Shown piece by piece: positions 6,523 to 55,048 of a stretch of DNA of 64,000 bases. Origin of the DNA: Malacoraja senta (lineage: Eukaryota); assembly GCA_038087875.1 (NCBI GenBank), contig CM075987.1, positions 28,274,001 to 28,338,000 on the forward strand. The letters are read 5' to 3'. The translations under genes and the position numbers were made by a program. Numbering within the stretch: the stretch's first letter is position 1; every line of letters starts with the position of its first letter. Under the pieces are notes generated by a model, which was given only the letters and a program-made list of their open reading frames with translations, had not been told where the DNA came from and did no database searches.

Positions 6523-28308
<21,786 letters not shown>

Positions 28309-31095: not shown

Positions 31096-39550
<8,455 letters not shown>

Positions 39551-49900: not shown

Positions 49901-52900
49901 CTTGCATTTAGGGAAGGAGGGCATGGGGGCAATTGTTTATCTTTGCTTAACAGAGAAGAGGCGATGGGGCTATTGATGAAGAAAGCATGTGGAACATTGT
50001 AAGCATTGCCCCTCTGTCCTGTCAATTCTGCTTACCAGTATAACCAGGAACAAGTTTCTGTGGGTGGATCTGGTCAGACACATCAGGCATACAGTATTCC
50101 TCATCTTCTGGAAAACACTGTTCTGGAGGTTGTGTCGTTGGCCACAGGATCGATTGGCCGGCTCTTGACTTTTTGGGATCCTTCAGGATATCATGAGTAG
50201 TCCTTCCATAGGTCTTGCCAAACCGGAATGGGAATGTCTGGGAGTATCCTCCATATCTGCATGGGGGCAAAAGTAAATGTAATTTCACAAGCAGCTTACG
50301 GACAGTAACGCTGAACTACAGAATTAAATGGCAAATAAACAGGCGATTCGGCCCACCGTGTTCATGCCGACCATCTATTCTAATTCCATTTACCAGCACC
50401 TGGTCTGTGGCCTTCTGTGCCGTGACAATTCAAGTGCTGGTCAGGATACTCGGAATGTTGTTGGGGTACCAGCCAATCAGGCATGAAAAACTTCCAATCT
50501 CTAAACCACCTACCCCTTACCCTGAAGCTATGCCTTCATATTTCAGATACTTCTGCTTTGGGGAAATGTTTGCCATTAGCGATCAATCTTATCTTCATGA
50601 TTTTGTATACTTTAATCAAGTCCCCCACGCAGCCTCCTGCACTTGAACAAAAACAAACCCAGCGCATTCAATCTCCCCCAATCACCCAAAGCAACTAATT
50701 CCAACGTAGGTTAGGCTGCACTTGCAGTATTGTAGTTGGGCTGCACTTGCAGTATTGTGTGCGGTCCTGATCACCACATTACAGGAAAAATGTGATTAAG
50801 CTAGAGATGGTGCAATAAAGATTCACAGGGATGTTGTCTGGATTGGAGGCTTGAGTATAAGAAGAGGTTAAAATAGCTGGGTCTGTTTTCCCTGGAGCAA
50901 AGAGCCTGAGTGGCAATGTGATAGAAGTATACACAATTATGACAGGCATAGATAGGATGGATTATCAGTCTAAAAAGGACATAAATGCTGGAGTAACTCA
51001 ACAGTTCAGGAAGCATCTCTGGATGGCAGACTGCGTGTAATGTGGGGTTATCCACATTGGTAGGAAGAAGAAGGAATAGTGAGAGGTTGCAAGATGCTGT
51101 TGTACAGAGGGAGTGGTGGGTGTTTTTATTGTGAAATGATGTGTGACTACTGAAGGCTCTAATGGCCTGGAAAAGGTTTTCTTCAAGGTCATGGTGATAT
51201 TTTCCAGCATCATTCACATTTCAGAAAAAGATACTGGAGTAATTCAGCAGGTCAGGCAGCATCTCTCGACAACATGGATAGGTGACGTTTTGTGTTGTGA
51301 CCCTTCTTAGTTGAGAGAGGAAGCTGGGAGAGGGGAGGCATAGGACAAAGTCTAGCGAGTGATGGGTGGATACAGGTGAGGGATGTTTTTGATAGACATG
51401 GTTGAACAAAGGCCAAAAATGACAAAAGGTTGAGATAAGGACAAAATTGGATTTCTCGGCAACTATCTCTGTTGGATAAAGTGAATAGTGCACATGGGCA
51501 GTGATAGCTACATACAGGGTTAAATGTAACCCTGTTCAGTCTAGCCTCGTACAGCTACTGCTGAGCCTGACAGCTGTAGTTTGTATCAAGGCCGGTTTTG
51601 TGCAACCCAGGGCTAAAATATGTTAATCTCACCATTAACAAAATTGGTGTCATAAACACCAGCACCATCACAATGACCCTGAGCCCCTTCACTTTCCTCT
51701 CAAAAAGTTAAGTTTATCTTCCTCAAAGATCTGGATATCAATCTCGTCCCCTGCAACAATGCCAAATGCTGTGATCCCTCCTCAGCATTGGTGTTCACAC
51801 CACCCTGCCTGGTTTCCTTCCACTCCAGGGCAGCTGGATGGACCATACAGGCACCATTCATAGCAGTCGGAGCCCAAGAGGCTCACCCCAAAGTATCACC
51901 CAAGCGCCCGTGCTCCCATCCCCTTTAATTCATCACTGGAACATCAGTGGAGGTGGCACACTGTTCCACATCACACAGCTCCCAGCTATCTCCAACTTGC
52001 CTGCCACACACAGGCCGGTAAATCTACTCATGCAATGTTACACACTCTATCAGGTCAGTAATTATACTGATCAGTGCACATAAATACGAACAGAACTCAC
52101 TCAATGATACACACACACTCGGTAAATGCACAGTATGCATAATAGTTATATATATTCAATAACACAAACTATTTAAAACCTGTACATGTTGAGAAGAATG
52201 GGCAATTTCTGGTCCTAATGCTTCCTGAATGAGATGGAAGGAAGCGAGCAATCTGCCACAAAGTCTCGGCACTGAGGTGTTGGTAACTTGAAATGCAGAG
52301 AGGAACATTCCAGCAATTTCTCACGGAATCAGAATGGAAGAAAAATGGACAGCCATCCAGAGAAAACATTGGGAGTGAGGATGGGTGACCATAATCTGAA
52401 CCAAAGGTGTGTGTGTGTTGAGGAGGAGGCAAAGAAAGCAAGGGAATTGAGCTCAACACCTAAACCCTGACAAAGGCATGGTGTGAGCAAGTGAAAAGAC
52501 AGGGTGAGGGGTGAAGATAGGACTGAGGTGGGGAGGAAGGAGCCCATGAAGAGATACAAACTGTGGTGTCAGGTGAGGGAGTTATGCCAGTTGGGTGGGT
52601 GCAGAATAGAACACGGGCTGCAGACTGCAGGCGGGATGTAACAGGAGGCTGCCTGAGGATATCAATCATCGTCTGCAGGAGGCAACCGGAGGGTGCCCCA
52701 GCAGTAAAATGACCCAAAACAGGAGCAGAGACAGGCAATGTTACTAAGCTGGTGAGTTTGAGTTTTATTTATTGTCACGCGTACCGAGGCACAGTGAAAA
52801 GCTTTTGTTGCATGCTAAGCAGTCAGCGGAAAGACGATACATAATTACAATCGAGCCATTCACAGTGTACAGATACATGATAACATGAATAACATTTAGT

Positions 52901-53664
52901 GCAAGGTAAAGTCAGATCAAAGATTGATGGTTTCCAATGAGATAGATAGTAGCTCAGGACTGCTCTCTGGTTGTGGTAACTTGGTTCAGTTGCCTGATAA
53001 CAGTTGGGAAAAAATTGTCCCTGAATCTGGAGGTATGCATTTTCACACTTCTATACTTTTTGCCCGATAGGAGAGGGGGGAAGAGGGAGTTGCCAGGGTG
53101 TGACTCATCCTTGATTATGCTGCTGGCCTTGCCGAGGCAGCGTGAGGTATAAATTGAATCAATGGAAGGGAGGTTGGATTGTGTGATGATCTGGCTGCAT
53201 CCATAATTCTCTGCAATTTCTTGCAGTCTTGGATGGAGCTGGTCCCAAACCATGCTATGATGCATCCTGATAAAAATTATTTGTATGGCGCATCTAGAAA
53301 TTGGTGAGTTGTTGGGGACATGCTGAACTTCATAAACTTTCCTAAGAGGGGGTGAATGGGGCAGCGATGGGCAATGTTATTGAGCTGGTGAGGGGGTGAA
53401 TAGGCAAGACCTCAAAGAATGTTTGCTGCTCATCCTCAACAACTACTGAATGCAATGATGGCAAAACACGGTAGTTGTTGGAATCTTGGATGCCCAGCAG
53501 CTCCGGAAGCTTTGCTGGGCTGACTCAGTGTAAAGGAGTAATGAACGCTATAGTCCATTGTTTTATTCAACAAAGAAATGCTTCTATTCATAACCTGAGA
53601 GAGCTACTTACCCAGGTATATGATGTGGTTCTGGAGTGAAAAGATGGTGTTTCTTTGCAGCCAT
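40926..53664 (-). CDS. CIMIP2A: Ciliary microtubule inner protein 2A (FAM166A), complete 7 exons: 53664-53612, 50256-50036, 47048-46900, 45333-45198, 44003-43909, 42701-42593, 40999-40926; 278 aa
   Basis: Spliced product [38 protein letters not shown]...[16 protein letters not shown].../...[15 protein letters not shown]...[14 protein letters not shown]...[26 protein letters not shown]...CL*. All introns GT-AG, phases consistent, total 837 nt. LFTPEPHxxPGY start and GYxGxxP repeats are FAM166 hallmarks. Confidence 0.9.
45020..45112 (-). mobile_element. Penelope-like GIY-YIG C-terminal fragment
   Basis: [25 protein letters not shown]. Confidence 0.6.
47905..48912 (+). mobile_element. CR1 LINE, 5'-truncated, decayed
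   Basis: [30 protein letters not shown] motifs and CR1 3' UTR. Confidence 0.92.
52762..53340 (-). mobile_element. Rex1/Babar or L2-type LINE 3' fragment
   Basis: Minus strand [27 protein letters not shown]...RFRDNFFP. Confidence 0.75.
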
Positions 53665-53854
53665 GCTCCTAATCCAGGTATGTTATTAACTCTTGACATT
53701 TAGGAGACTTGGGGCACAACCCCTTTCCTACTGTCAATGTCAAGTAGTTACTAAGCAACCAGCTGACAGTGCCCATGACAACAGCATTGGCAGCACCGCC
53801 AGTGAGCAGGTCCTCAACTTGCTGCTTGCCATCGAAGAACATTGGGCAGGAAAA
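53665..53854. promoter_or_regulatory. Putative bidirectional promoter with RFX X-box motifs
   Basis: GTTACTAAGCAAC (53747-53759) and GTGCCCATGACAAC (53769-53782) lie between the CIMIP2A ATG (53664, -) and the ORF ATG (53855, +). Confidence 0.65.
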
Positions 53855-55048
53855 ATGATGGGCTCTTCGATCCCCTTCCGCTCCCACTGGCCAAAGATAG
53901 GTGTGGACAGCCATGGGCGATTCCTCAAACCAACAGCGGTAAACATCGGCCTGTGTGATGGCACGCGATGCCACAGGGGTCCCTGCAGCAAAAAAACTCG
54001 CACCCATCCAACCCACCGCCGCTTCATGAAGGAGAAGTACATCCCGCACGGCAGCCAGGCTTTCCTAACCCTTCTCGCTCACTACGAGGCACGGGCGATG
54101 GCACAAGCTGGCTTGGAATGCGTGGGAACGCACATCCCAACCCCAGAGGAGCAGCGCGCTCTGAAGGAAGTCCTCCAGGAAATCGAACAGGGGCCGTCAA
54201 CAGCAGCTGACCAGGCCCAGGCCGGCCAGAGTGGTCAGGAGGAGACTCGGCAGGACAGCCAAGGAACAGCCATTGCCCAGGCCCCTGTAGAGCAGCAGAT
54301 AGCACCCACCCAGGCCCCAGACTACTGCATGACACGCGATCTAAGGCATTGCATGCGAGCAACCACAGCAGGGGTGGGCTCATCAGTTTGCCCCGACACT
54401 ACCAGGTCTCCAATACCAGGGTTTCAGCCGCAGTGTCCATGTGAGATGATCACTTTGACCTATTGCCCTTGTAAGCTCATGCAGGAAGGTGAAATGGCTG
54501 GAGCTCCACAACAGATGCCACAAGATCAGCAGGAAACAGAGCCCACAGAACTAGCAGAGCAAACTTCCGCAGAACCAACAGAGGACACCAATACCGGCCC
54601 CACGCAACCAGCAGAGCCAGAAGATACAGCTCCCACAGAAGCAGCAGAAGAGGGGGAGGGTGTGGCTTCCCCTGAGCCAGCAGAAGCTGCTGATGTGGTC
54701 ACTCCTGAACCAACTGAGGAGGCAGATATGGTTTCCCCAACCACAGCAGAAGAGGCTGATGAAGCCCCTGCACCAGCAGAAGAGGCTGATGAGGCCCTTG
54801 CAGATGTGGTCTCCCCTGAATCAGCAGAAGAGGCAGATGTGATCTCCCCTGAACCAGCAGAAGAGACAGATGTGATCTCCCCTGAACCAGCAGAAGAGGC
54901 AGATGTGATCTCCCCTGAACCAGCAGAAGAGGAAGATGTGTCCACTGAACCAGCAGAGGAGACAGATATGTCCCCTGAACCAACGGAGGATGATACAGCT
55001 CTCGCAGAGACGATGGAAACACCTATCAACGAACAAGCAGAGAAGTGA
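53855..55048 (+). CDS. Uncharacterised protein, ~397 aa from the first in-frame ATG; Cys-rich segments and acidic EPAEEADVISP repeats
   Basis: Frame open from 53693 to 55048; no recognisable TE motif; about 260 non-repetitive codons; repeat length variants keep the frame. Confidence 0.6.
   Translation: MMGSSIPFRSHWPKIGVDSHGRFLKPTAVNIGLCDGTRCHRGPCSKKTRTHPTHRRFMKEKYIPHGSQAFLTLLAHYEARAMAQAGLECVGTHIPTPEEQRALKEVLQEIEQGPSTAADQAQAGQSGQEETRQDSQGTAIAQAPVEQQIAPTQAPDYCMTRDLRHCMRATTAGVGSSVCPDTTRSPIPGFQPQCPCEMITLTYCPCKLMQEGEMAGAPQQMPQDQQETEPTELAEQTSAEPTEDTNTGPTQPAEPEDTAPTEAAEEGEGVASPEPAEAADVVTPEPTEEADMVSPTTAEEADEAPAPAEEADEALADVVSPESAEEADVISPEPAEETDVISPEPAEEADVISPEPAEEEDVSTEPAEETDMSPEPTEDDTALAETMETPINEQAEK
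54640..54995 (+). repeat. Coding tandem repeat, ~33-bp unit
   Basis: GAACCAGCAGAAGAGGCAGATGTGATCTCCCCT, about 10 degenerate copies. Confidence 0.9.

Follow-up and report, generated by a model that had tools for sequence, protein, structure and literature searches.

An apparently elasmobranch-restricted gene head-to-head with CIMIP2A in Malacoraja senta and its possible role in the sperm flagellum

The locus and its open reading frame

The window, by which we mean the whole 64,000-nucleotide stretch of Malacoraja senta DNA that was analysed, carries two beta-tubulin genes (+), CIMIP2A (-), a 397-residue open reading frame (ORF; 53855-55048, +) and EDF1 (-), in that order. CIMIP2A (FAM166A-type) was recognized by sequence reading: its first coding exon, the divergent partner of the ORF, occupies 53612-53664 (-) and ends in a GT donor, and its second exon, within 50022-50315, gave a Pfam match to PF10629 (CMI2B-like) over the cut-off (E = 1e-5). 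The ORF translates without a stop, as a preliminary description of this DNA had reported, and all of the motifs quoted there are present. The stop-free run around it comprises 452 codons, a length exceeded within the window only by a LINE reverse transcriptase frame. At the local composition, the chance of 215 stop-free codons is 3.5e-4 and that of 397 is 4e-7. Translation and alignment place the start of the uninterrupted frame at a Met-Met pair common to all homologues, the second ATG (53858) having a stronger Kozak context than the first. The frame is collinear with all homologues and strong donor consensus is absent inside it; the gene is predicted to have a single coding exon.

Searches of the skate's own genome with the protein and with the DNA returned one match each, a second genomic match appearing only at E = 3, as expected by chance. 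No Pfam domain and no multiple genomic copies were found for the ORF. Because it is single-copy by both searches it is not a transposable element (TE), and the earlier statement that it lacks TE motifs holds, its homologues being elasmobranch only. The opposite strand of its repeat also carries an open frame. Conservation across species establishes the ORF as coding: it is an intact, single-copy, real gene.

In the human order we take STPG3 to adjoin FAM166A, between FAM166A and NELFB (9q34.3 region), and the ORF had been placed at the position of STPG3. This stands on the CIMIP2A side and fails on the other, where the far neighbour is EDF1; NELFB was located at 0.91 Mb of the same 28.5-Mb contig, approximately 27 Mb from the ORF (locus at about 28.33 Mb). 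The accompanying remark that the ORF has no PGP repeats was correct, since a SHIPPO/PGP regular expression matched neither the five proteins (5/5 blank) nor the six frames of the window. Pfam gave no PF07004 (P-G-P-x-x-Y repeats) for the protein or the four aligned proteins. A genome search for PF07004 was also blank but, by its own control, uninformative, and no convincing SHIPPO motif was seen in the approximately 50 kb up to the NELFB 5' end or in 40 kb beyond the window.

Several further features of the locus were recorded. NELFB and the TUBB-CIMIP2A block, presumably adjacent in human, are found here at the two ends of the contig, which suggests an intrachromosomal rearrangement with a breakpoint beside the ORF. 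The last exons of the two tandem beta-tubulin genes (27223-28308 and 38462-39550, +) encode different acidic C-tails; the human locus presumably has one beta-tubulin gene (TUBB4B) there. A GC-rich tandem array of 23/29/64-bp units (31458-31993) lies between the tubulin genes, carries long minus-strand open frames and is probably a CpG-island repeat. LINE-type reverse transcriptase/endonuclease frames, interrupted so that they fall into several ORFs, were found at 15139-18101, 19622-20827 and 24270-26223. A 15-bp X-box-like palindrome is located in the EDF1 gene region just past the window end (L003:848-862), and a non-repetitive, coding-exon-like open frame of 246 codons (+) lies upstream of NELFB at about 892.8 kb (L010:2800 onward).

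Homologues, conserved blocks and the acidic tail

A search with residues 1-215, in which 375 candidates were scored, returned three clusters containing five database proteins from four species. These database predictions are XP_069790913.1 of the electric ray Narcine bancroftii (NCBI name 'FSCB-like'), XP_072343870.1 and GCB81483.1 (two records) of the catshark Scyliorhinus torazame, XP_038637393.1 of the catshark S. canicula and GCC20186.1 of the bamboo shark Chiloscyllium punctatum. Their database names are uncharacterized, hypothetical or FSCB-like, the last most likely reflecting low-complexity similarity. Full-length identities to the three cluster representatives are 57, 40 and 41%. All of the database homologues carry three conserved blocks and an acidic Glu/Pro tail, and have no Pfam assignment. 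The shark proteins have Ser-Pro-rich tails, and the Narcine model has 27 extra N-terminal residues relative to the ORF.

A five-sequence profile of the head was run against 1,835,955,588 protein representatives and gave three matches at E ≤ 0.001, of which two are elasmobranch. The third (E = 2.7e-7) is a bacterial-type lipoprotein whose score sums seven weak repeats; it was rejected at an hhalign probability of 6.6%. A word-index profile search recovered the same three clusters among 3104 candidates of similar length and none among 8000 scored candidates of 392-2000 residues, the latter being a weak search. Pfam assigned no family to the protein; single-member matches among the four aligned proteins (Mitofilin, E = 0.009; RH1, E = 0.032) were dismissed as composition noise. 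A profile search of PDB sequences gave no chain at E ≤ 10, and the ESM Atlas gave no feature match for the head or for the shark protein; Atlas structure neighbours at a TM score of about 0.2 are meaningless, the source model having a pLDDT of 0.38. No match was found in 35 viral contigs or 89 prokaryote genomes (0/35 and 0/89). One of 75 metagenome stretches (L002) gave a 27-residue match on the strand opposite a 199-residue microbial ORF, which was attributed to chance. None of the Pfam, PDB and profile searches gave a credible match to a known gene or TE; a clear match of that kind was what the preliminary description had singled out as contrary to its reading.

The literature search found no published paper naming any of the six accessions or locus tags and no description of the gene family. 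The preliminary description had recognized no family, and the homologues are uncharacterized predictions of no known family; its suggestion of a lineage-specific gene agrees with homologues confined to elasmobranchs among the proteins searched. As far as predicted proteins show, the family is apparently elasmobranch-restricted; animal genome DNA was searched in the window's own genome, and unannotated or more diverged orthologues may occur in chimaeras or bony vertebrates.

Conservation, counted over four aligned proteins, falls in three blocks. Block 1 (residues 1-18; 53855-53908, +) has 15/18 invariant positions. Block 2 (residues 57-103; 54023-54163, +) has 29/47, including Cys89, and helix prediction places an amphipathic helix at residues 68-83 and the start of another at 97-111 in this region. 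Residues 188-213 have 13/26 and include a Cys-Pro motif, CPC-x7-CPC (54434-54475, +), in which C194, C196, C204 and C206 are invariant. The linkers retain 4/38 (residues 19-56) and 7/84 (residues 104-187) positions and the tail 12/184, a pattern suggesting that purifying selection is concentrated in the blocks. Against shuffled targets, alignment of the head scored z = 55-110 and that of the tail only 3.5-10.5. The split between sharks and rays is more than 200 million years old, so that the blocks have been under long constraint. Five of the 11 cysteines are invariant (C89 and the four of the Cys-Pro motif); C34, C39, C44, C158 and C166 occur in M. senta alone among the four aligned proteins, one of which also lacks C179. 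The cysteine clusters stressed in the preliminary description are thus largely peculiarities of this species, only C89 and CPC-x7-CPC being shared by all.

The head is basic (9-14 Lys/Arg versus 3-4 Asp/Glu), and the whole protein has a pI of 4.15 (4.15-4.49 across the five homologues). No transmembrane or signal-like stretch was seen, the maximum Kyte-Doolittle value of any 19-mer being 0.46-0.93. Outside the conserved blocks the chain is predicted to be disordered. An AF2 model from the five-sequence head alignment had a mean pLDDT of 39.7 and a pTM of 0.19, with pLDDT of 50-70 only at about residues 67-81 and 96-111; a small fold is neither shown nor excluded by it, and its low confidence may come from the five-sequence alignment and not from disorder. 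The Atlas model of the shark protein also has a pLDDT of 0.38. Consensus patterns for Mn, SHIPPO, AKAP and PKA sites were used for motif tests. An AKAP-type RII-binding helix consensus matched the protein of this species only (0/4 homologues), the PKA consensus [RK][RK]x[ST] was absent from all five proteins (0 in 5/5), and an IQ motif was absent or not conserved. PYG, SNYG, NWE, Mn-like and SHIPPO motifs were likewise missing from 5/5; the PYG, SNYG and NWE patterns were taken from a source according to which Mn units escape simple searches (PMC10973386), so the Mn part of this test is weak.

The tail (residues 216-397; 54500-55045, +) is acidic and predicted to be disordered, with 60 Asp/Glu and one Lys in 182 residues. 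Nine degenerate units of 10-16 residues span residues 274-375, and TRF reported 5.7 copies of a 33-nt unit at 54800-54982. The preliminary description had counted about ten EPAEEADVISP repeats: the repeat is real, with the exact unit occurring once and three units matching at 10/11 or better. Unit lengths of 33, 30 and 48 nt do keep the frame, as had been noted; as a sign of selection this is weak alone, because the repeat has a codon periodicity and shows only three or four length changes. A comparison of five 33-nt units gave a pN/pS of 0.35, the pairs not being independent. Every homologue has a tail with 25-33% Asp/Glu and 14-18% Pro, and the repeat sequence differs: rays have 11-residue units, and their repeats and C-terminal ends differ from those of sharks. 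The Ser-Pro count is 13-15 in sharks, seven in this species and zero in Narcine. The alignments suggest that what is conserved is the presence of an acidic Glu/Pro tail and not its exact sequence. Mimicry of tubulin C-tails, proposed earlier, finds no support in a tail with 14-18% Pro, 12/184 invariant positions and a repeat and C-terminus that differ between rays and sharks.

The gap shared with CIMIP2A

The ATG of the ORF and that of CIMIP2A (53664, -) are separated by exactly 190 bp, as stated in the preliminary description. Midway in this gap, pattern matching predicted a 13-bp palindromic X-box-like (RFX) site at 53747-53759; its distance to the ATG is 82 bp for CIMIP2A and 95 bp for the ORF, a closeness to the gene start expected of a putative RFX target. 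The window was scanned with four X-box patterns of falling strictness, which found one, two, two and ten sites, respectively; 53747-53759 was found by all four. For the strict pattern it was the sole match in 64 kb (one palindromic site, both strands counted, versus 0.21 expected), and five of 100 shuffled sequences reached two matches. The chance of a match within the 190-bp gap was 0.0006-0.027 over the four patterns, figures that flatter the site because the patterns were chosen after it was seen. The first six letters of the site are shared with the X-boxes of DCDC2 and DYX1C1 tested by EMSA (PMC5024701), and human X-boxes cluster less than 500 bp from the transcription start site (TSS; PMC5838959). 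The sites through which RFX2 drives spermiogenesis genes are 14 bp long and close to the TSS (PMC4498915), compared with 13 bp here; Fam166a is not named in the main text of that source. FAM166A is described as replacing FAM166B in mammalian sperm doublets (bioRxiv 2022.09.29.510157).

The gap shared with CIMIP2A and the X-box in it are the best evidence, though indirect, for the predicted expression of the gene in spermatids, and they render plausible the relation to sperm or cilia proposed earlier. The X-box could serve CIMIP2A alone. Two pairs of other sites flank the X-box in the gap: CCAAT boxes (-) at 53786-53790 and 53841-53845 and TALE-type TGACAG sites at 53731-53736 and 53764-53769. 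An origin of the ORF by inverted duplication of CIMIP2A was considered and is unsupported for exon 2, with which there is no similarity (probability 1.6%).

Upstream of the ORF, sequence reading identified an out-of-frame ATG that opens a 27-codon uORF (53775-53858, +), the stop codon of which overlaps the start of the ORF. In the Narcine model the corresponding ATG is in frame and supplies the 27 additional residues. The first ten residues of the Narcine extension match the uORF frame (6/10) and the last 13 match the main frame (10/13). Since the extension aligns to the upstream DNA of the window with a one-base shift, we take this stretch to be a conserved leader or promoter and not coding; an N-terminal extension of the ORF by 27 residues was rejected for the same shift between species. 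The ATG of the uORF also occurs in Narcine, shifted by one base; if included in the transcript, the uORF could dampen translation or set its timing. N-myristoylation of the Gly after the second Met is disfavoured by Pro at position 5, as judged from the N-myristoylation consensus.

Possible function and competing explanations

The tail of the ORF resembles the acidic Pro/Glu/Ala repeats that we take mammalian FSCB to carry. FSCB is also a one-coding-exon gene in mouse, with expression in testis and spermatids and a flagellar location (PMC7401351; bioRxiv 2024.11.26.625329). It differs in that the head profile of the ORF retrieves no FSCB, as known here from the profile search and not from a direct pairwise alignment, and in that the five elasmobranch proteins all lack the PKA consensus. 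STPG3, a testis-enriched gene of mammals (PMC7401030), is unlike the ORF, which has no SHIPPO/PGP motif, has a single frame and is followed by EDF1 and not NELFB. The sequences thus appear to place the family outside the FSCB, STPG, ODF1, AKAP and MIP modules. ODF1 (HSPB10) has a long C-x-P array, whereas the ORF has only two CPC units, adds a long acidic tail and has no alpha-crystallin domain (Pfam blank). With ODF1 and the Cys/Pro-rich accessory-fibre proteins the ORF shares Cys-Pro motifs suited to zinc or disulfides, and Pro/Cys-rich proteins stabilized by disulfides and zinc build the outer dense fibres (ODFs) and fibrous sheath (PMC8471410).

Our preferred reading, to which we give a probability of about 0.45, is that the gene encodes a largely disordered flagellar accessory protein expressed in spermatids from an RFX-driven promoter shared with CIMIP2A. 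An RFX factor (RFX2 in mouse spermatids) would bind the central X-box and fire transcription in both directions. The conserved basic head (residues 1-18 and the helical block 57-103) would fold upon binding a flagellar partner, and CPC-x7-CPC would bind zinc or form disulfides that cross-link copies of the protein in an insoluble matrix around the axoneme, as Cys/Pro-rich ODF1 does in mammals. The acidic Glu/Pro tail would act by charge and length, as a spacer or a low-affinity cation sink, and its exact repeat would therefore be free to turn over. Such a protein would work like FSCB or ODF1 without homology to them; the zinc, disulfide and Ca2+ chemistry is drawn from analogy. This unnamed, conserved and apparently lineage-restricted family probably works like acidic or Cys-rich sperm accessory proteins.

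Among the competing explanations, it is doubtful, if worth serious attention, that the X-box serves only CIMIP2A and that the gene is non-flagellar, perhaps encoding a Cys-cross-linked or scaffold protein of somatic or epithelial tissue. Proximity alone is no proof of co-regulation, and the locus is rearranged relative to the human order as we assume it, NELFB being 27 Mb away; against this, both starts are less than 100 bp from the X-box, so the two promoters must overlap, and an architecture of one coding exon with acidic repeats resembles that of testis genes like Fscb (PMC7401351). We consider it unlikely that the protein is instead an axonemal microtubule-associated or inner protein (MIP) of motile cilia and flagella, in which the blocks would bind tubulin or MIPs and the tail would lie either within the lumen or outside it. 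The divergent MIP gene with its central X-box and the basic head (9-14 Lys/Arg versus 3-4 Asp/Glu) would suit such a protein, as would the frequent MIP design of short conserved stretches within a disordered chain (PMC10973386), yet no tested MIP motif is present, CIMIP2A exon 2 is not similar (probability 1.6%), no PDB chain was matched at E ≤ 10 and a strongly acidic tail of 130-190 residues should repel tubulin. A spermatid nuclear role, in which the tail would serve as a chaperone for histones or protamines as the long helical head condenses and the Cys motif would exchange zinc or disulfides with Cys-rich protamines, appears distinctly improbable: the acidic residues are interrupted by Pro and form no poly-acid tracts, Pfam gives no nucleoplasmin or NAP-type domain, and the promoter partner is flagellar. 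In its favour are the chaperone-like charge pattern of a basic head and long acidic tail and the presence of Cys in elasmobranch protamines.

Two further explanations carry little weight. One is orthology to a known vertebrate gene (STPG3, another 9q34.3 gene or FSCB) after so much divergence that the sequence no longer shows it. In its favour are the side and orientation relative to CIMIP2A, which are those we assume for human STPG3, and the FSCB-like name given by NCBI to the Narcine protein; in addition, an STPG3 candidate was not located elsewhere, the PF07004 search being uninformative by its own control. We hold this to be very improbable, as the SHIPPO motif is absent from the five proteins, the frame is uninterrupted and the head profile retrieves no bony-vertebrate protein. 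That the frame is non-functional, whether a chance, repeat-inflated or TE-derived one, is scarcely credible and largely refuted by block conservation across rays and two shark orders, by the single copy and by the pN/pS of 0.35 among five repeat units (pairs not independent), even with the opposite strand of the repeat open too.

A more specific form of the preferred reading concerns the elasmobranch sperm tail, in which two accessory longitudinal columns are twisted round the axoneme and are tied to corkscrew swimming (PMC11856307); cartilaginous fish are the earliest group in which structures associated with doublets 3 and 8 are seen (PMC11276731). Together these would give such a protein a natural location. 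It is a long shot, and we think it rather unlikely, that the protein is a building block of these two helical columns, which are peculiar to elasmobranchs. It would then be an independently invented, Cys-cross-linked analogue of the fibrous sheath that arose on the RFX promoter of CIMIP2A and converged on the design of FSCB and ODF1, with the ray and shark tail repeats tuning the mechanics of the columns. The literature looked at, which was not a full survey, assigned no protein to the columns, and a conserved, clade-restricted gene with a predicted RFX promoter shared with a sperm doublet protein offers a concrete candidate. If correct, this would be an old case in which a lineage-specific gene came to sit on a tissue-specific bidirectional promoter and was retained. 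The X-box match in the gap shared with CIMIP2A is new, and the family was previously represented only by uncharacterized database predictions. The effect of the gene may be modest, as comparable mouse genes (Fscb, Cabs1 and Stpg3) are each dispensable for fertility (PMC7401351, PMC7401030).
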